Positions 1-57,326 of a DNA stretch of 64,000 nt are shown one piece after another (the stretch's first letter is position 1; each line of letters opens with the position of its first letter). A program made the position numbers and the translations under genes. Under the pieces are notes generated by a model. It was not told where the DNA came from and made no database searches. It saw only the letters and a program-made list of their open reading frames with translations. The DNA is taken from assembly GCA_963702895.1 (NCBI GenBank), contig OY969767.1:1632001-1696000 (forward strand). The letters are read 5' to 3'. This DNA comes from an uncultured Elusimicrobia bacterium. Lineage in GTDB: Bacteria; Elusimicrobiota; Elusimicrobia; 2-01-FULL-59-12.

Positions 1-2644
1 CCATGAGTTTCGCGGCAATCTTCGCGAGGGGCACGCCGGTGGCTTTCGAAACAAAGGGGACCGTACGGCTGGCGCGGGGATTGGCTTCCAGAATATAGAT
101 GATGCCCTCGCGGATCGCGAATTGGATATTCATAAGACCCTTCACACCCAGCCCCTTGGCTAACTGCTCGGTGTACGTTTTGATGGTGTGGAGATCTTTT
201 GCGGAAAGAGTTCGCGGGGGAAGCACGCAAGCAGAATCCCCAGAATGGATACCGGCTTCCTCAATATGCTCCATGATCCCGCCAATGTAGATGTCCTGGC
301 CGTCACAGAGGGCGTCGACATCCAGTTCCGTCGCATTGTCCAGAAACTTATCAATGAGAATCGGGTGTTCGGGTGAGACCCGTGTCGCTCGGGCGATATA
401 GTCCGCCAGCATCGCGTCGTCATAGACGACTTCCATCGCGCGACCGCCGAGGACATAGCTCGGCCGGACCATCACGGGATAGGTGATGCGCTCGGCGGTC
501 GCGCGGGCTTCTTCAAAAGAGCGCGCGGTCCCATTGGGGGCCTGAGGAATGCCCAGTTTGGTTAACAGAGCGCCAAAGCGCTTGCGATCTTCAGCCAAAT
601 CAATGGAGTCCGGGGAAGTGCCCAGGATCTGCACGCCAGCTTGTTCAAGCGGGAGGGCGAGGTTGAGCGGCGTCTGACCCCCGAATTGAACAATGACGCC
701 TTCGGGCTTTTCTTTCTGGACGATGTTCAGCACGTCTTCCAGGGTGAGGGGCTCAAAATAGAGTTTATCGGAGGTGTCATAATCCGTCGAAACCGTCTCG
801 GGATTACAATTGATCATCAGGGTCTCATACCCATCCTCTTTAAGCGCCATGACGGCATGGACGCAGCAGTAGTCAAACTCAATGCCTTGCCCGATGCGGT
901 TGGGGCCGCCGCCGAGGATGATGGCCTTCTTTTGAGCGCTCGGGACGACCTCATCTTCTTCCTCATAGGTCGAATAGAAATAGGGCGTGTAAGCCTGGAA
1001 CTCCGCCGCGCAGGTGTCCACCGACTTATAGGTTGGAAGGATCTTTTCGCTCATGCGCCAGGAGCGAACGTCTTTCTCGCTCACACCGCGCAGGACCGCG
1101 ATCTGAACATCGGAGAATCCGTGGCGCTTGGCTTCAAGAAGCAGCTCACGCGGCAGCGGGTTCTTGGGCGCGGCGGCAATCGCTTTTTCACAAGAGAGAA
1201 TGTCCTCGATCTGATGGATAAACCAGGGATCGATCCCGGACCACTCGGTGATTTGTGGGGCGGTAACACCTGCCTTCAAGGCGGCGCGAAGATAGAAGAT
1301 GCGGTCACAATTGGGGACCCGGATGCGGTCATGCAAAAGGTTCATCCACTGTCCGTGTTCGATGTTTGCGGCCCCTTCCGAGCTCGACAGTTCCTCTCCC
1401 GGGCTCTTTCGATCGGCCCCTAATCCTTGCGATCCGACCTCAAGGCCTCGAAGCGCTTTCTGCAGGGCCTCCTTGAAGGTTCGGCCCAGCGCCATGACCT
1501 CGCCGACGGATTTCATCGCGGTATTTAACGTTTGATCGGCCGCTGTAAATTTCTCAAAGGCAAAGCGCGGAATCTTGACCACCGTGTAATCGATCGTGGG
1601 CTCAAAAGAGGCGGGTGTTTTCTTTGTGATGTCATTGGGGAGCTCGTCCAACCGGTAGCCCACCGCGAGCAGCGCCGCGATCTTGGCGATCGGATAGCCT
1701 GTCGCTTTGGAAGCGAGCGCCGAGCTGCGAGACACGCGCGGGTTCATCTCGATGACCACACGCTCACCCGTCGCGGGATCGACGGCAAACTGGATGTTGG
1801 ACCCACCCGTGTCCACACCGATCGCCCGGATGCAGGTAAAGGCGTCATCACGCATCGCCTGGTACTCGAGATCCGTCAGAGTCTGAATGGGCGCTACCGT
1901 AATGGAGTCTCCCGTATGCACGCCCATCGGGTCAAAGTTTTCGATCGAGCAGATAATGACGCAGTTATCACGGCAGTCGCGCATCACTTCCAGCTCATAC
2001 TCTTTCCAGCCCAGCACGGACTGCTCCATGAGCACCTCACCCACGGGACTTGCTTCGAGACCCCGTTGGAGGGCCTCCAACAATTCGTCCTTGGTATAAA
2101 CCGTCCCCGAACCAATGCCCCCCAGCGTGAAGGATGGGCGGATGATGATCGGAAAACCAATATTACGGGCAATCTCTTCGCCTTCGGCCAGAGACTTCGC
2201 GTAACCGCTCTTGGGGACTTTGAGTCCGACATCCTGCATGGTTTTCTTAAAGAGGAGGCGGTCTTCCGCTTTTTTGATCGCGTCGAGTTTCGCTCCGATG
2301 AGCTCGACTTTGTATTTGTCCAGGACCCCTCGCGTGGCGAGTGCCACAGCGAGATTAAGCGCCGTTTGTCCCCCCAGGGTTGGCAGCAGCGCTTCGGGTT
2401 TTTCTTTGGCAATGATTTCTTCCAGAATTTCGGGGGTGAGCGGCTCCACATAGGTTGCATCGGCGAGTTCAGGGTCCGTCATGATCGTCGCTGGGTTCGA
2501 GTTGACGAGGACAATCCGGTAGCCCTCCTTGCGAAGGGCTTTGACGGCCTGGGTTCCGGAATAGTCGAACTCACAAGCCTGGCCGATGACGATCGGGCCG
2601 GAGCCGATGATCAGGATGGTTTTGATATCAGTTCGCTTGGGCAT
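1..2644 (-). CDS. carB: Carbamoyl-phosphate synthase large subunit (runs off the left edge of the window)
   Basis: Reverse strand from ATG at 2644 reads [30 protein letters not shown]; lies directly downstream of carA; absent from the ORF track because it is truncated. Confidence 0.97.
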
Positions 2645-15759: not shown

Positions 15760-15987
15760 AGAAAAGAGTGTGTCCTGCCCGTCAGCCGCAAGACCGATAG
15801 CCTGATCCGGTACGAAGCCACCCTTTTGCGCCAGTTCTACCGGGCCATACACGAACTGGAGCGGCTCCCCGCCACGACATCCCGGCGGGTCCGCCGACGC
15901 CTCAGTGGCGGACAGAGCTCGCGGCGCGGGGTGGCCGTGCCGCCGCCGGTCGCGGTTGACGTAGAGGTTACGTCATCAATCCCCTGA
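15760..15987 (+). pseudogene. C-terminal remnant of a hypothetical protein, with an in-frame 45-nt twin-hairpin insert at 15868-15912
   Basis: Reads LPVSRKTDSLIRYEATLLRQFYRAIHELERL-[PATTSRRVRRRLSGG]-QSSRRGVAVPPPVAVDVEV; no start codon; in-frame stop at 15757-15759. Confidence 0.55.
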
Positions 15988-20111: not shown

Positions 20112-20256
20112 TCGGGGCGTCCTGAGGTGTTGTTTTGTTGTCTATCGGGGTGGCGCCGTTGGTCAACTGGCTCGGGGCGTAGCGTCCCTGACGGTCGCCT
20201 AGCGGCGACCGGAGGGACAGTCCCTACACCCGAAGGGTGTGCGGGACGCAGTTGGT
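20112..20256 (+). pseudogene. Series of tRNA-Pro 5' fragments; the last is interrupted by a hairpin insert at about 20185-20248
   Basis: tcggggcgt (20112), cggggtggcgccgttggt (20146), cggggcgtagcg[insert]cagttggt (20173-20256). Confidence 0.8.
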
Positions 20257-20275
20257 GAAAATGCTGCTGCTGGGT

Positions 20276-20348
20276 CGGGGCGTAGCGCAGTTGGTAGCGC
20301 GCCTGCTTTGGGAGCAGGAGGTCCCGGGTTCAAATCCCGGCGCCCCGA
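20276..20348 (+). tRNA. tRNA-Pro (TGG)
   Basis: Cloverleaf; cctgc-tt-TGG-ga-gcagg; flanked by the inverted pair gctgctgctgggt / acccagcagcagc. Confidence 0.97.
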
Positions 20349-20357
20349 CCCAGCAGC

Positions 20358-20797
20358 AGCGCGGTCGCCAGACTTTTGGCGACAGGTCGCCGGTTCATCC
20401 GCCACACAACGGGCGGATGCCCGACTGTAGTGTGTCGGGCAAATCCGGCCGCCCCGAGTTTTTTTCGGGGCCGGGTTCCGCGCCACTACGTCGCTGGCGC
20501 GCCCGCCAGGATGTAGTGGCGGGAAATCCCGGCGCCCCGACCCAGTAGCGACAAAATAGCGCGGTCGCCAGGTGTCTGGCGACAGGTCGCCGGTTCATCC
20601 GCCACACATCGGGCGGATGCCCGATCGTAGTGTGTCGGGCAAATTCGGTCGCCCCGAGCCAGTTGATGGTGCGGTACCGGGTTCATCCGCCAGACAACCG
20701 GCGGATGCCCGCCTGACGTGTGGCGGGCAAATCCCGCCCGCCACTAAAACACGGCGGGCGCCCGCTGCGGTGCAGTAGCGGGCGGCGCCCCGAGCCA
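20358..20797 (+). pseudogene. Four tRNA-Pro 3' fragments, each interrupted in the T loop by a twin-hairpin insert
   Basis: ggttc[insert]aat...cgccccga at about 20384-20457, 20471-20543, 20584-20657 and 20677-20797. Confidence 0.88.
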
Positions 20798-20878
20798 TGG
20801 GGTAAATTTGATTATCGTCCCCGTAGTACAATGCCCGCCACATGTGCCGAGGCGGAGAGCTGTCTATGGGCCGTTATC

Positions 20879-20950
20879 GCGCCCTTAGCTCAATGGATAG
20901 AGCAGTAGCCTTCTAAGCTACTGATAGAGGTTCGATTCCTCTAGGGCGCA
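20879..20950 (+). tRNA. tRNA-Arg (TCT)
   Basis: Cloverleaf; gtagc-ct-TCT-aa-gctac. Confidence 0.96.
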
Positions 20951-21181
20951 AATTTATAGAGGATCTGAAGGATAACCGATAAGGACCCCCAGGCCCGGTT
21001 GAAGGAACATCATGAAGGTGTTACTCGATCGGCTCGTCCTTATATACCCTTTGAATTAGTCTATACTCAACACTTTGAAGATGCTGCCTTGGCCCGGAAG
21101 CGAGAGAAAATCTTTAAGATTGGAAAGGGAAGGCAGATCTTAAAGAGCATTTGGCGTGAGCATCATTTTCTGGGCCGTTAG
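20951..21181 (+). pseudogene. N-terminally decayed small GIY-YIG nuclease (UPF0213-like)
   Basis: TDKDPQARLKEHHEG...RPYIPFELVYTQHF...ARKREKIFKIGKGRQ; an upstream YRGS is out of frame and followed by a stop. Confidence 0.75.
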
Positions 21182-21244
21182 CTCAATTGGTAGAGCATTC
21201 GCCTCTTAAGCGACAGGTTGCCGGTTCGATTCCGGCACGGCCCA
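21172..21244 (+). tRNA. tRNA-Lys (CTT)
   Basis: Cloverleaf; tcgc-ct-CTT-aa-gcga. Confidence 0.95.
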
Positions 21245-21250
21245 CATTTA

Positions 21251-21354
21251 CAGCAGAGCAGAGAGCAGAGAGCAGAAATACGGCAAACATCTTTTATAGA
21301 ACGGCCGACTCTTGGAGGCCGACCTTTTCTCTGATTTCTGCTCTCTGATCTCTC
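21251..21354. repeat. Inverted heptamer arms (GCAGAGA)n/(TCTCTGM)n with a spacer
   Basis: cagagcagagagcagagagcagaaa ... tttctctgatttctgctctctgatctctc. Confidence 0.8.
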
Positions 21355-21368
21355 ATTTGCCGTTCTTG

Positions 21369-21466
21369 GCGCCCTTAGCTCAATTGGATAGAGCATCTGC
21401 CTTCCCCGCCACTGAGGCGTTGGCGGGTCCGCCAAAGCCATAGTGGCGGAGGAGCAGAGGGTTGGA
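21369..21466 (+). pseudogene. tRNA-Arg(TCG) 5' portion with a twin-hairpin insert inside the anticodon (21405-21450)
   Basis: gcgcccttagctcaattggatagagca-tctgc-ct-TC[insert]G-ga-gcaga-gggtt; 3' end missing. Confidence 0.88.
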
Positions 21467-21475
21467 TCGTTTTGA

Positions 21476-21547
21476 GCGCCCTTAGCTCAACGGATAGAGT
21501 ATCGGTCTTCGGAACCGATGATGAGGGTTCGAGTCCCCCAGGGCGCA
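21476..21547 (+). tRNA. tRNA-Arg (TCG)
   Basis: Cloverleaf; tcggt-ct-TCG-ga-accga; one mismatch in the T stem. Confidence 0.93.
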
Positions 21548-21553
21548 ATTTGT

Positions 21554-21660
21554 GGACCGGTGGCGCCCGCCACTACACCATGGCGGGCGTCCGCCAAGGT
21601 TTAGTGGCGGACGGAATTGGCAGACGCGTCCCGATCCTCGATATGGTTATTGTCGGGACG
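21554..21660 (+). pseudogene. tRNA-Leu 5' fragment with two hairpin inserts
   Basis: ggaccggtggcg[twin hairpin]gaattggcagacgcg[tcccga...tcggga]cg. Confidence 0.85.
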
Positions 21661-21684
21661 TACCGACCGATGAAGCTCGTGCCT

Positions 21685-21767
21685 GGACCGGTGGCGGAAT
21701 GGCAGACGCGCAAGGCTTAGGACCTTGTGCCCGCAAGGGTATGCGAGTTCGACTCTCGCCCGGTCCA
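21685..21767 (+). tRNA. tRNA-Leu (TAG)
   Basis: Cloverleaf with a long variable arm; caagg-ct-TAG-ga-ccttg; upstream of tig, a common position. Confidence 0.97.
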
Positions 21768-34491: not shown

Positions 34492-34578
34492 GCCCCCATC
34501 GACTCGTGGTTAGGTCACAGCCCTTTTCCGCCACTAGGTCGTTGGCGGACCCGCCGCGATGGAGTGGCGGGCAAGGCT
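34492..34578 (+). pseudogene. Outermost tRNA-Glu 5' half with a twin-hairpin insert in the anticodon (34527-34571)
   Basis: gcccccatcgactcgtggttaggtcacagcccttt[insert]caaggct. Confidence 0.88.
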
Positions 34579-34617
34579 CCGCCACATGACCGGCGGATGA
34601 CCAAGAGTTTGTGTAGT

Positions 34618-34667
34618 GCCCCCATAGACTAGTGGTTAGGTCACAGCCCTTTCAAGGCTGTAGGACG
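34618..34667 (+). pseudogene. Middle tRNA-Glu 5' half
   Basis: Exact copy of the first 50 nt of the intact tRNA-Glu. Confidence 0.92.
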
Positions 34668-34701
34668 TAAGAGAAGTCTTCAGTGCGACTGGAATAGGCG
34701 T

Positions 34702-34773
34702 GCCCCCATAGACTAGTGGTTAGGTCACAGCCCTTTCAAGGCTGTAGGACGGGTTCGAATCCCGTTGGGGGCA
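34702..34773 (+). tRNA. tRNA-Glu (TTC), innermost intact copy, no encoded CCA
   Basis: Cloverleaf; cagcc-ct-TTC-aa-ggctg. Confidence 0.97.
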
Positions 34774-34810
34774 CGCTTATAACTCCCAGTCGCACTGAAG
34801 ACTTCTTGAA

Positions 34811-34880
34811 GGGTTCGCCCGCCACACAATCGGCGGGCGAGCGCCTGAAGTGTGGCGCTCGAATCCCGTTGGGGGCACCA
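34811..34880 (+). pseudogene. Middle tRNA-Glu 3' half with CCA and a twin-hairpin insert in the T loop
   Basis: gggttcg[insert 34818-34861]aatcccgttgggggcacca. Confidence 0.9.
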
Positions 34881-35051
34881 CACAAACTCTTGGTCATCCA
34901 CCGGCCGTGTGGCGGACGAATCCCGTCCCGCATCCTTGTAGCTAAGAGTGCGGGACTGTACCGGCTCATAAGCTCGCCCCAGCGAGCGGGTCAAAGGTTC
35001 GGTACGTTGGGGGCATATCGCTCACGAGTCAAGGATGGACATTGGATCATC

Positions 35052-56395: not shown

Positions 56396-57326
56396 GGTAT
56401 TCCCCCTTAAACGTCACGCGTACCGGCCCTGAAAGTGTGATACCCGTCGCATCCGAAGACCGTCCGAGTTCCGGAGCGCCACACAACAGGCGCCCGCCAA
56501 CCGTGTGGCGGGCCCGACGCCTCAAGCTGGACTTGGCACGTCGGACGTCGGACGGACGTTGAAAATCGACCTTCAGAATAGCCCCACTGGCGACGACACA
56601 GCGGACCGGCGCTTGGACAAGACCCTTCAGCACAGCAGCGATGGCGCTCGCGACAACGCCTGTCCCGCAAGCCAACGTTTCCCCCTCCACGCCCCGCTCA
56701 TAAGTACGAACACGGAGCTTGTGAGGCCCGATTTTTTGAACGAAATTGACGTTGGCCCCCTGGGGTCCAAACGCGCGATGGAACCTCAGAGACCGGCCCA
56801 GACGACCCACCAAAACCTTGTCCACATCCGCGACAAACAAGACGGCGTGCGGCACGCCCGTGTTGATGAAGTCGGGACGATAGAGATGGCCGCCGACTTG
56901 GGCGGTCACACCCGGCCTGAAGTCATAAGCATCGGCCAAGCAGATCTCGACCACCTGACCTCGGACGCAAGCGCCCACGGCATAAGCATCCGTATGAAAG
57001 CGAAACTTCTTGGGCACGAGGCCCTGCGCATGGGCGAAATAGGCCATACAACGAGCGCCATTGCCGCACATGCTGGCGCGCGAACCGTCGGCGTTGTAGT
57101 AAACCATGCGAAAGGCAGGCGTCCGACGCGTGACGTCCGACGTCGGACGTCGGACCTCGGACGGATCCTCCAGGAGCAGCAGGCCGTCGGCTCCCACGCC
57201 GAATTGGCGATGGCACAGACGCTTGGCCCAGTCGCCGTAATGGCCGGCGATGATTCGTCGGCGGTTGTCGATCACGACAAAATCATTGCCGGACCCCGAC
57301 ATCTTCCAAAAACGCAAGCTCTTCAT
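56388..57326 (-). CDS. dapF: Diaminopimelate epimerase with two in-frame repeat insertions
   Basis: GNDF, MCGNG, GVPH, ERGVEGETLACGTG. Confidence 0.96.
   Translation of the reverse strand: MKSLRFWKMSGSGNDFVVIDNRRRIIAGHYGDWAKRLCHRQFGVGADGLLLLEDPSEVRRPTSDVTRRTPAFRMVYYNADGSRASMCGNGARCMAYFAHAQGLVPKKFRFHTDAYAVGACVRGQVVEICLADAYDFRPGVTAQVGGHLYRPDFINTGVPHAVLFVADVDKVLVGRLGRSLRFHRAFGPQGANVNFVQKIGPHKLRVRTYERGVEGETLACGTGVVASAIAAVLKGLVQAPVRCVVASGAILKVDFQRPSDVRRAKSSLRRRARHTVGGRLLCGAPELGRSSDATGITLSGPVRVTFKGEYHV
56446..56558. repeat. Heptamer arms enclosing a twin-hairpin element (about 56476-56512), in frame in dapF
   Basis: cgtccgagttccg...gcgccacacaacaggcgc-ccgccaaccgtgtggcggg...cacgtcggacgtcggacg. Confidence 0.8.
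57120..57163. repeat. Heptamer palindrome in frame in dapF
   Basis: cgtccgacgcgtgacgtccgacgtcggacgtcggacctcggacg; encodes PSEVRRPTSDVTRRT. Confidence 0.9.

Follow-up and report, generated by a model that had tools for sequence, protein, structure and literature searches.

The stretch of DNA analysed here (the window, 64,000 nt) comprises positions 1,632,001-1,696,000 of a single 2,724,539-bp contig (OY969767.1; 2.72 Mb, 57% G+C) from an uncultured Elusimicrobia bacterium, whose genome has a completeness rating of 98%. The window and the rest of this genome contain many copies of a small DNA element, composed of two back-to-back hairpins and about 40-50 nt in all, that obeys a distinctive junction rule. 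Each copy reads N-hairpin 1-N′-hairpin 2-N, where N is a sequence of 0-3 nt that flanks the element on both sides and N′ is its reverse complement, located in the centre. The values of N observed are none, C, G, CG, CA, TC, TT, GA, CT, GG, AT and GGA. Many copies reside in the loops of disabled tRNA copies, close to intact tRNA genes and to genes for very small GIY-YIG nucleases. The data favour a heritable two-part element over the free capping of two break ends with hairpins, and the association with nuclease genes suggests a place for it as the non-coding, double-hairpin part of a mini GIY-YIG nuclease system associated with tRNAs (UPF0213/Ssn-like proteins of about 80-100 amino acids).

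A recurring twin-hairpin element of two families

A preliminary description of the window had proposed a twin-hairpin element of about 45 nt, and pattern searches confirm that it is a real and recurring structure, far above chance expectation. The long-loop pattern has nine matches in the window and none in 100 shuffles, and the short-loop pattern has 73 matches in the genome compared with none for a reversed control. There are 229 classifiable family hairpins in the genome, and a scan for abutting family hairpins yields 108 pairs with 106 distinct starts. Abutting inverted doublets in many copies (106), a feature of repetitive extragenic palindromic (REP) sequences and their doublets (REPINs), are therefore present, with the hairpins directly abutting, sharing 0-3 nt and having no spacer between them.

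Two families can be distinguished. In the long-loop family, F1, the hairpin has the design x-CCGCC, a 9-11-nt loop starting with ACT, and GGCGG-x′, and is followed by its inverted partner. In the short-loop family, F2, the design is xx-CG(C/A)C, an 8-nt loop (A-S-A-C-N-N-C-N) and G(G/T)CG-x′x′, followed by a like hairpin that is inverted and directly abutting. Among the classifiable abutting pairs, 47 are F2(+)/F2(-) and 23 are F1(+)/F1(-), and none of these 70 same-family pairs has the order (-)/(+); the exceptions are one (+)/(+) pair and one pair of mixed families. Copies in T-loops form a separate F2 subclass with 8-bp stems: of the 50 F2 twins with a 6-nt middle (24 from this genome and 26 from metagenomes), 43 occupy T-loop-like contexts.

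The two halves of a twin are also matched in sequence. F1 loops can be sorted into an A type (ACTGAG or ACTAAG) and a B type (ACTAC and similar), and the 39 long-loop twins that were parsed include 16 A+B heterodimers but only one AA and two BB pairs, the remaining 20 having an unclassified half. In F2, the CGAC core never appears in both halves of a twin (0/49 in this genome and 0/84 in metagenomes, or 0/133, where simple arithmetic predicts about 4.6). Because the halves are non-independent in loop composition, in core sequence and in order, the twin is a defined two-part unit rather than a chance meeting of hairpins.

When folded as single-stranded DNA (ssDNA), F2 copies are predicted to form two hairpins closed by the T-stem (z-scores of -3.9 and -3.4), and three F1 copies are predicted to form one long imperfect hairpin (-5.3 to -5.8). 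The copy at 20730-20790 folds no better than shuffled sequences (-0.96). The original proposal of two GC hairpins thus holds for the short-loop copies; for the long-loop copies it describes only one of two folds, since three of them prefer the single long hairpin. The element may be regarded as a palindrome of palindromes that, according to these models, could switch between a rod and a twin-hairpin form. Elsewhere in the genome (974490, 1610622, 1611425 and 2274528) there are four copies of a perfect 22-nt palindrome, GTCCGCCAGACGTCTGGCGGAC, which is a family hairpin with a self-complementary loop.

The central spacer matches the flanking duplication

When two maximal stems overlap by k nt, the flanks automatically repeat k nt, and so the real test of the junction rule is whether N occurs as a single copy in the empty site. 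Empty sites were paralogous and were located through anchor look-ups, and tRNA copies were compared by eye with the neighbouring intact tRNA. For 32 elements there is some candidate empty paralogue, and in 22 of these the length of the duplication equals the stem overlap; the other ten have poor flanks, repeat hosts or a point mutation. A strict flank filter leaves 13 elements, of which 12 show the equality: eight with 1 nt, one with 2 nt (TC, with GA in the centre) and three with 3 nt (GGA/TCC). The sole exception lies in a heptamer-repeat host. These 13 belong to about seven families of host repeats, and the number of independent events is correspondingly below 13. Clean cases of N = 0, judged by eye, are CCCCCAC/AAGGGG and AGA/CGTCT, the latter in the loop of another family hairpin, and N = 0 accounts for 29 of the 108 pairs in this genome and 18 of 84 metagenome twins. 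For single family hairpins, usable empty sites were not found.

The T-loop subclass displays the rule in its most regular form. An exact trio of N, complement and N is present in 40 of the 43 T-loop-type F2 copies (21 from metagenomes), with 34 reading CG/CG/CG, five CA/TG/CA and one TG/CA/TG, and the remaining three are off by one flank base. Mixed trios such as CA/CG/CA do not occur among the 43. Together with the strict paralogue pairs and the unrelated metagenome contigs described below, these copies bear out the proposal that the internal spacer tracks the flanking duplication in both length and sequence. In the TC/GA and GGA/TCC classes, N coincides with the usual outer stem pairs, and in several classes, including several of the C/G ones, the nucleotides of N are taken from the normal 6-bp stem and do not lengthen it. 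Between the hairpins there is always the reverse complement of the flank, and from sequence alone the right-hand N can be read either as part of the element or as a duplicate.

Most of the individual copies in the preliminary description stand (Table 1). The CA duplications with a central TG at 20398, 20598 and 20686 are as reported, and the first two indeed stem from one duplicated event, both lying within a single 200-nt tandem duplication. The CG duplication with a central CG is seen at 20737, 21566 and 34818 (CG or TCG in the last). No element resides at 2675, where the stretch is an uninterrupted host palindrome; a related element is inserted in that palindrome elsewhere. The copies at 20479, 21405 and 34527 lack a duplication and a spacer, as stated; that at 15868 is an element, but no empty site was found for it.

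Insertion sites in tRNA copies and other hairpin loops

The genome has 48 tRNA genes, and 43 of the 108 pairs are no more than 500 nt from one of them, in neighbourhoods that by simple arithmetic make up about 2% of the genome. These copies are found mostly in the T-loops of disabled partial tRNA copies beside the intact tRNA. In the usual layout, the intact tRNA is followed by one to six units, each consisting of the 5′ half of the T-stem, the element, the 3′ half of the T-loop, the acceptor 3′ strand and a short trailer, as exemplified by six 82-nt units at tRNA-Gln(CUG). In the window, about 530 nt of partial tRNA-Pro copies lie downstream of tRNA-Pro(UGG), and five of these carry an insert of 45-50 nt. 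One of the structures in this region (20461-20545) resembles a minihelix, with the acceptor 5′ strand of tRNA-Pro fused to a T-arm and acceptor 3′ strand and with a long-loop element in the T-loop.

F2 copies in T-loops duplicate C56-R57. The CG class is found in copies of Arg(CCU), Gly(GCC), Val, Phe (three copies), Asn (three), Gly(CCC) (two), Gln (five), Glu and Gly(UCC), the copy beside Gly(UCC) resembling Gly(CCC). The CA class, with its TG centre, is found in copies of Pro(UGG) (three copies), Pro(CGG) and Pro(GGG). CG trios occupy TTCGA loops, and CA trios occupy TTCAAAT or TTCAAGT loops of tRNA-Pro (three loci here, and metagenome locus L122) and of tRNA-Thr (L104). At L104, where the intact tRNA-Thr(UGU) gene has a pseudo copy as its neighbour, CA/TG/CA interrupts the TTCAAGT loop of that copy, and the CA class is thus not confined to tRNA-Pro. 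There are several exceptions: a pseudo tRNA-Thr(GGU) copy reads CG/CG/CG though the working gene reads TTCAATC; one copy at the Phe locus has CAG replaced by CG..CG..CG; one flank base is off in two of the Gln array's units and in the Arg(CCG) copy; and two copies (813557 and 1603317) have a 1-nt defect.

In tRNA copies, F1 mostly lacks a duplication, occurring at TTC/RAAT, CTTC/GGA, TTT/CAA and in D-loops. Where F1 does have one, it is CG at GGTGG/CG/GAAT (Leu-UAG), G at GTGGC/G/GAAT (Leu-UAA) or C at TT/C/GAAT. Overall, the targets are mostly hairpin loops, namely T-, anticodon and D-loops, and also include CCCCCAC/AAGGGG, CACACGCTT/C/GCGTGT and GTCGCCAGA/CGTCTGGCGAC. Some elements are situated within arrays of 7-8-nt tandem repeats (genome positions 897019, 975660, 1941512 and 2306833; 728972, 1852571 and 2213746); the repeats in question are ACGTCGG-like and GTATCGGR-like and are present at many places in the genome. 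A different kind of change affects the anticodon arm of disabled tRNA copies: in its entirety, and with the join precisely at the stem base, the arm has given way to one GC hairpin belonging to the local repeat family, both here and in other phyla (Table 1).

The history of the tRNA-Pro locus can be partly read from relatives. Two metagenome loci, L072 and L122, hold the orthologous His-Pro-Arg-Lys-Arg-Leu tRNA cluster, and the disabled tRNA-Pro 3′ halves in the window (20384-20460; AGGTCGCCGGTTCAAATCCGGCCGCCCCGAG) match the working tRNA-Pro of L072 (440-515). From this match, it seems that the working tRNA-Pro(UGG) in the present genome received a replacement 3′ half and that the old one was pushed downstream. 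The spacing from tRNA-Pro to tRNA-Arg is 4 nt in L072 as against 526 nt here. Contigs that skip the 528-nt stretch between the two genes come from other organisms (88% likeness, with short sides); those of run X10 have 7 nt in its place. Contigs of runs X8 and X10 also skip the GIY-YIG remnant listed in Table 1 but, being likewise from other organisms and of 88% likeness with short sides, constitute weak evidence.

The tRNA-Glu region (34497-34900) displays an intricate arrangement of its own. The intact tRNA-Glu (34702-34774) has an inverted repeat of about 24-26 nt on either side (near 34668-34693 and near 34789-34813). It is nested in a tRNA-Glu copy of greater age; the 5′ part of that copy (34618-34668) and its T-arm (34815 onward) remain outside, and a further inverted-repeat pair, at about 34598 and 34881, surrounds the entire arrangement. 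At 34618-34704 ARAGORN calls an 87-nt tRNA-Glu, which looks like an artefact of this nesting.

Association with small GIY-YIG genes

Besides UvrC, the genome encodes nine small GIY-YIG open reading frames (ORFs), six of which are within 1.5 kb of tRNA genes that carry the element. All nine match PF01541, eight of them above the cut-off, while NCBIfam gives sub-threshold matches only. Among known structures, the proteins are similar to 1ywl and 1zg2, both UPF0213 (E about 1e-8), with a weak resemblance to SLX1. In the tRNA-linked arrangement, the GIY-YIG gene lies beside an intact tRNA, and a spare T-loop is interrupted by the element. At the tRNA-Asn locus, two GIY-YIG genes are each located between element-bearing T-arm units, and the 3′ ends of the genes overlap a T-stem copy. 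A GIY-YIG pseudogene with an in-frame TGA lies at genome positions 580545-580871, between tRNA-Ile(GAU) and tRNA-Ala(UGC), a tRNA pair typical of the spacer of ribosomal RNA operons. The link to GIY-YIG enzymes drawn in the preliminary description therefore holds as an association, which recurs in seven of the 80 metagenome loci described below; as N ranges from 0 to 3, the overhang of 2 nt that GIY-YIG homing enzymes leave, also invoked there, fits the T-loop class only.

Searches of the genome found no intact Y1/HUH transposase (RAYT/TnpA, PF01797), no TnpB and no Ku gene. The only trace of a Y1 enzyme is a fragment in an 84-amino-acid frame (genome positions 390719-390889, 23.3 bits) that lacks the C-terminal half and has no element noted beside it. 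The surrounding IS200-like stretch (390674-390928; L001, 1456-1710) lies in a region of apparently lower G+C content.

Occurrence in metagenomes and other phyla

The F2 pattern is absent from the 150 other Elusimicrobiota genomes sampled, including the single one of the same family, and is present in at least 124 metagenome contig stretches, from which 80 loci were fetched and analysed. These contain 84 twins, with stem overlaps of 2 nt (22 twins), 3 nt (19), 0 (18) and 1 nt (14), and 11 irregular cases. TT/AA, GA/TC, CT/AG, GG/CC, AT and TCA/TGA are values of N that are new relative to this genome, and GGA/TCC recurs. A tRNA is present in 22 of the 80 loci and a GIY-YIG ORF of the same subfamily in seven; at one locus, L121, the element is sited between two ORFs.

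A separate set of 23 loci in other phyla was obtained with a single-protein query and holds relatives of the tRNA-Ala-linked GIY-YIG protein. They come from Gammaproteobacteria, Omnitrophota, Patescibacteria, Planctomycetota, Bacteroidota, Verrucomicrobiota, a Halorubrum metagenome-assembled genome (MAG) and others. A tRNA is close by in 13 of the 23, several with hairpin-interrupted tRNA pieces. An exact-stem scan of the set finds few twin hairpins, the pseudo-tRNAs carrying single or differently built ones, and these loci bear neither way on the junction rule, apart from a chain of three hairpins in a Planctomycetia MAG (L030, 880-930). There, a pseudo tRNA-Asp beside a GIY-YIG gene contains a row of three hairpins, unrelated in sequence, with stems that have CCT/AGG/CCT/AGG in common, an instance of the same base sharing outside this phylum. 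In one public contig (L022), 100 nt (1122-1221) are masked; the masked stretch is situated close to tRNA-Glu, on its downstream side, and upstream of the GIY-YIG gene.

Table 1. Copies of the element and associated features (window positions unless another source is named)
Position	Strand	Feature	Basis
15868..15912	+	F1 element downstream of tRNA-His	sequence, pattern match
20275..20352	+	Intact tRNA-Pro(UGG); T-loop GGGTTCAAATCCCGG, empty-site reference for the downstream copies	ARAGORN, Rfam, sequence
20364..20383	+	Single family hairpin GTCGCC-AGACTTTT-GGCGAC, exact replacement of the anticodon arm in a pseudo tRNA-Pro	comparison with intact tRNA
20396..20441	+	F2, CA-hairpin-TG-hairpin-CA, in the GGTTCA/AATCC T-loop of a pseudo tRNA-Pro 3′ copy	sequence, fold
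20479..20523	+	F1, no duplication, no spacer, at TTC/AAAT of the acceptor/T-arm minihelix-like copy	sequence, fold
20564-20583		Second single hairpin replacing an anticodon arm in this way	sequence
20596..20641	+	F2, CA/TG/CA, tandem duplicate of the 20396 unit, one stem mismatch	sequence
20684..20729	+	F2, CA/TG/CA, in the T-loop of a tRNA-Pro 3′ copy	sequence, fold
20735..20784	+	Long-loop, CG/CG/CG, at a T-stem/acceptor boundary, ATCC/CG/GCGCC	sequence; weak fold z-score
20975..21181	+	Remnant of a small GIY-YIG gene between tRNA-Arg(UCU) and tRNA-Lys(CUU)	PF01541 20.4 bits, below cut-off; translation
21405..21450	+	F1, N = 0, in the anticodon loop CTTC/GGA of a pseudo tRNA-Arg	sequence, fold
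21564..21613	+	F1, CG/CG/CG, in a copy of the tRNA-Leu(UAG) 5′ end/D-arm, GGTGG/CG/GAATTGG	sequence, fold
34527..34571	+	F1, N = 0, in the anticodon loop TTT/CAA of a pseudo tRNA-Glu	sequence
34815..34861	+	F2, CG (or TCG)/CG(A)/(T)CG, in the T-loop of a pseudo tRNA-Glu 3′ copy	sequence
56476..56513	+	Short F2 twin, both stems sharing GC	sequence
genome 2184257-2184276		Anticodon-arm replacement; with the two in the window, in Pro and Thr copies
L033 ~1817-1830, L029 ~1434-1444, L042 ~1764-1780		Anticodon-arm replacements in other phyla (Ala, Pro, Asn)

Models for the movement of the element

The reading preferred here, with a probability of roughly 0.4, is that N is borne by the element itself, a heritable two-part unit that joins a target where the base of its stem matches. 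The unit, a + hairpin followed by a directly inverted - hairpin of the same family, would travel as a self-complementary strand whose two hairpins stack into one rod, either a dumbbell-like single-stranded circle or its nicked form, with N paired to its reverse complement. Opened at the foot of hairpin 1, the rod would be joined to a nicked target that shares the 0-3 nt of N at the stem base, leaving N to the left and right and the complement, contributed by the other strand of the rod, between the hairpins. Because every junction nucleotide can pair, the nicks would lie in continuous helices and could be sealed by host ligase. This logic would be that of the guide/cleavage-site pairing of IS200/IS605 and of REP sequences with their REP-associated tyrosine transposases (RAYTs), with a GIY-YIG nuclease replacing the Y1 transposase.

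Entry would take place at or near the apex of hairpin loops, above all at C56-R57 of the T-loop, with anticodon loops, D-arm regions of spare tRNAs, the loops of other repeats and positions next to or between hairpins as further entry points. As insertion into a working tRNA gene would be lethal, only copies in disabled duplicates would survive. The duplicates themselves were probably made by the nuclease cassette, through a replacement tRNA end and segmental amplification; the tandem arrays fit nuclease-driven amplification of the kind described for SegB in phage T6 (PMC13096335). The A+B composition, the fixed order, the T-loop subclass with its 8-bp stems and the position of N inside the normal stem all fit an element-borne N.

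Several observations weigh against such an element-borne N. The rod is not constant in length, ranging from 10 to 14 bp, and the outer stem pairs are highly variable yet always paired, which would require many compensatory changes. Both CG and CA are found with the same halves (TC.., CC..), a combination for which a centre templated by the target is the simpler explanation, and insertions with N = 0 would have no templated nick. No identical copies were found at unrelated sites, those that are identical sharing host repeats or tandem arrays. No intermediate or excision footprint was seen, and the only run that holds the locus well (X1, with identical contigs) shows no presence/absence variation at 20200-21700. 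GIY-YIG enzymes are not known to form covalent intermediates, and joining would consequently need a ligase. The orientation of long-loop copies is balanced between the replichores (AB 4/BA 3 on one arm and AB 4/BA 5 on the other), in a small sample of 16. Near-identical loops do exist at unrelated sites, but they cannot separate the models, since variation is limited to about six loop positions and some matches by chance are to be expected.

The preliminary description had envisaged that each of the two ends of a break is capped with a hairpin and that the ends are then rejoined. In such a scheme, a staggered break with 3′ overhangs of 0-3 nt would acquire a + hairpin on each 3′ end by snap-back copying through the overhang, after which the tails would anneal and be filled in. 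This would yield N-hairpin 1-N′-hairpin 2-N for any N, together with the + then - order, and would keep the variable outer pairs perfectly paired without selection. The additive T-loop class (6-bp stems plus 2 nt) is as predicted, trios are never mixed, and identical halves carry CG or CA according to the T-loop entered. There is also a suitable enzymatic precedent in SegB, a GIY-YIG enzyme of a tRNA cluster that, in the parts of the two reports available, leaves mostly 2-nt 3′ ends (PMC2330249) and drives tandem amplification of tRNA segments (PMC13096335). The proposal is nevertheless doubtful, and the analysis does not bear it out: the halves are not independent draws, given the excess of A+B twins (16 vs one AA and two BB), the absence of reversed order among 70 pairs and of CGAC/CGAC among 133 twins; N is carved from the normal stem in the TC, GGA and several C/G classes; and the 98%-complete genome yields no Ku gene. 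Moreover, no source is known that would supply a conserved core and loop sequence at each event, and a stagger varying from 0 to 3 nt is unusual for one nuclease. Somewhat more doubtful still is a templated "hairpin patch", a form of break repair or transposition for or by mini GIY-YIG nucleases in which the centre and both flank copies would be written from the target at every insertion. Equally tentative are its details, by which a break in the loop of a DNA hairpin would receive a family hairpin on each 3′ end through snap-back synthesis, followed by microhomology joining.

Homology alone is an improbable explanation, on which the trio had one origin or a small number of them, the nuclease then set off gene conversion and tandem amplification that copied the element between similar sites (T-arms and repeat families), and selection keeps the stems, including N, paired because hairpins are what the nuclease requires. 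Identical copies are indeed confined to tandem arrays or homologous host repeats, T-arms share GGTTCRA.TCC, pseudo-copies move between related tRNAs (as beside Gly(UCC)), the pseudo tRNA-Pro halves of the window match the working allele of a relative (L072), and nuclease-driven amplification has a precedent in the available part of one report (PMC13096335). Such copying leaves the origin of the trio unexplained, however, and must account for at least 11 different values of N over two families and for many unrelated sites with different N, including anticodon loops, D-arms, intergenic hairpins and the inter-ORF site of L121. An ordinary MITE (a miniature transposable element with inverted repeats) or REPIN is very unlikely. 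The inverted repeats, small size, many copies and filled and empty paralogous sites are all typical of one, but terminal inverted repeats around a plain centre and a fixed staggered cut would produce a duplication of fixed length. The tabulation contradicts this with duplications of 0, 1, 2 or 3 nt inside one family, always with the complement in the centre, so that standard MITE transposition does not predict the rule, as had been recognised from the outset; an intact REP/IS200-type transposase is also lacking. There is similarly little to recommend the view that the hairpins are selected RNA or DNA structures, such as terminators or tRNA-like decoys, rather than mobile DNA. Their strong predicted folds, their positions inside tRNA-like transcripts and the exact replacement of anticodon arms by hairpins in several phyla would suit a structural role, whereas filled and empty paralogues exist, copies occur in both orientations, and Rfam reports only tRNAs, eight of them, over the window.

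Relationship to known systems

IS200/IS605 elements and the REP/REPIN-RAYT system have hairpin ends and inverted doublets, move through a single-stranded circle and recognise their target by pairing with a short internal guide. On an element-borne reading of N, the element described here would share their logic, the flank matching the element's own end. It differs in that the genome has no intact Y1 enzyme, the hairpins abut, the centre is 0-3 nt rather than a guide of 4-5 nt, and there is neither a GTAG/CGTC tag nor a strand bias (n = 16).

The closest partner system is Ssn/SRM. As described in the available part of the report, Ssn nucleases are single-domain GIY-YIG proteins of about 90 amino acids that bind, as ssDNA, a hairpin repeat with a 6-bp stem and an 8-nt loop and cut just upstream of it, and their genes are flanked by the repeat (SRM-NTS), whose copies number up to hundreds (Chenal et al. 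2025, PMC11893778). At the tRNA-Asn locus of the present genome, too, a hairpin repeat of many copies flanks the nuclease gene. The authors remark on an insertion sequence-like layout, and the enzymes' ssDNA-specific cutting just outside the hairpin (PMC11893778) would suit an element-borne N. The available text does not contain the word "tRNA" and describes no abutting inverted pairs, target duplication or central complement (PMC11893778).

SegB, from the tRNA cluster of phages T4 and T6, is likewise a GIY-YIG enzyme encoded among tRNA genes that cuts in tRNA sequence, leaves mostly 2-nt 3′ ends and is connected with tandem amplification, according to the accessible parts of two reports (PMC2330249, PMC13096335). 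It is a phage enzyme with an extra DNA-binding part, and those parts mention no hairpin module or disabled, insert-bearing tRNA copies (PMC2330249, PMC13096335). The hairpin module in the present genome has spread to more than 100 copies, many away from tRNA genes. GC clusters of yeast mitochondria and the double-hairpin elements of Allomyces resemble the present element as GC-rich, mobile palindromes of about 40 nt, some with two hairpins, that occur in RNA genes; as far as the available text goes, they are linked by their authors to organellar endonucleases, and the yeast clusters are flanked by AG or ACT repeats (PMC4478555, PMC2800124). As candidates for the junction rule the yeast clusters were rejected, since the GC42 and GC38 sequences printed in the part available lack the complement of the flanking repeat (CT for AG, AGT for ACT) (PMC4478555). 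The Allomyces elements are said, in the part of the report available, to lack flanking duplications (PMC2800124, citing Paquin et al. 2000). Both kinds are organellar, whereas the present element is bacterial. In the literature searchable here, no description was found of the junction rule or of a design that combines tRNA, GIY-YIG nuclease and double hairpin. The element is rated as a small palindromic mobile DNA with a nuclease partner and a testable junction signature.

Implications

Small palindromic repeats are among the least understood of bacterial mobile DNAs. In the present case, the insertion junctions carry a readable record of the joining step in the form of N, its complement and N, which makes the mode of movement testable. 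Should the hairpin-patch route prove true, it would represent a pathway not known in bacteria, tied to widespread tRNA-parasitising mini GIY-YIG nucleases. If the nuclease reads or is steered by the 2-3 bp at the foot of the hairpin, the Ssn family would gain a programmable, structure-guided ssDNA tool. Many of the broken tRNA look-alikes that mislead gene callers are also accounted for by the finding. This system of tiny GIY-YIG nucleases occupies tRNA genes across many phyla and illustrates the invasion of an essential gene with retention of a functional copy.

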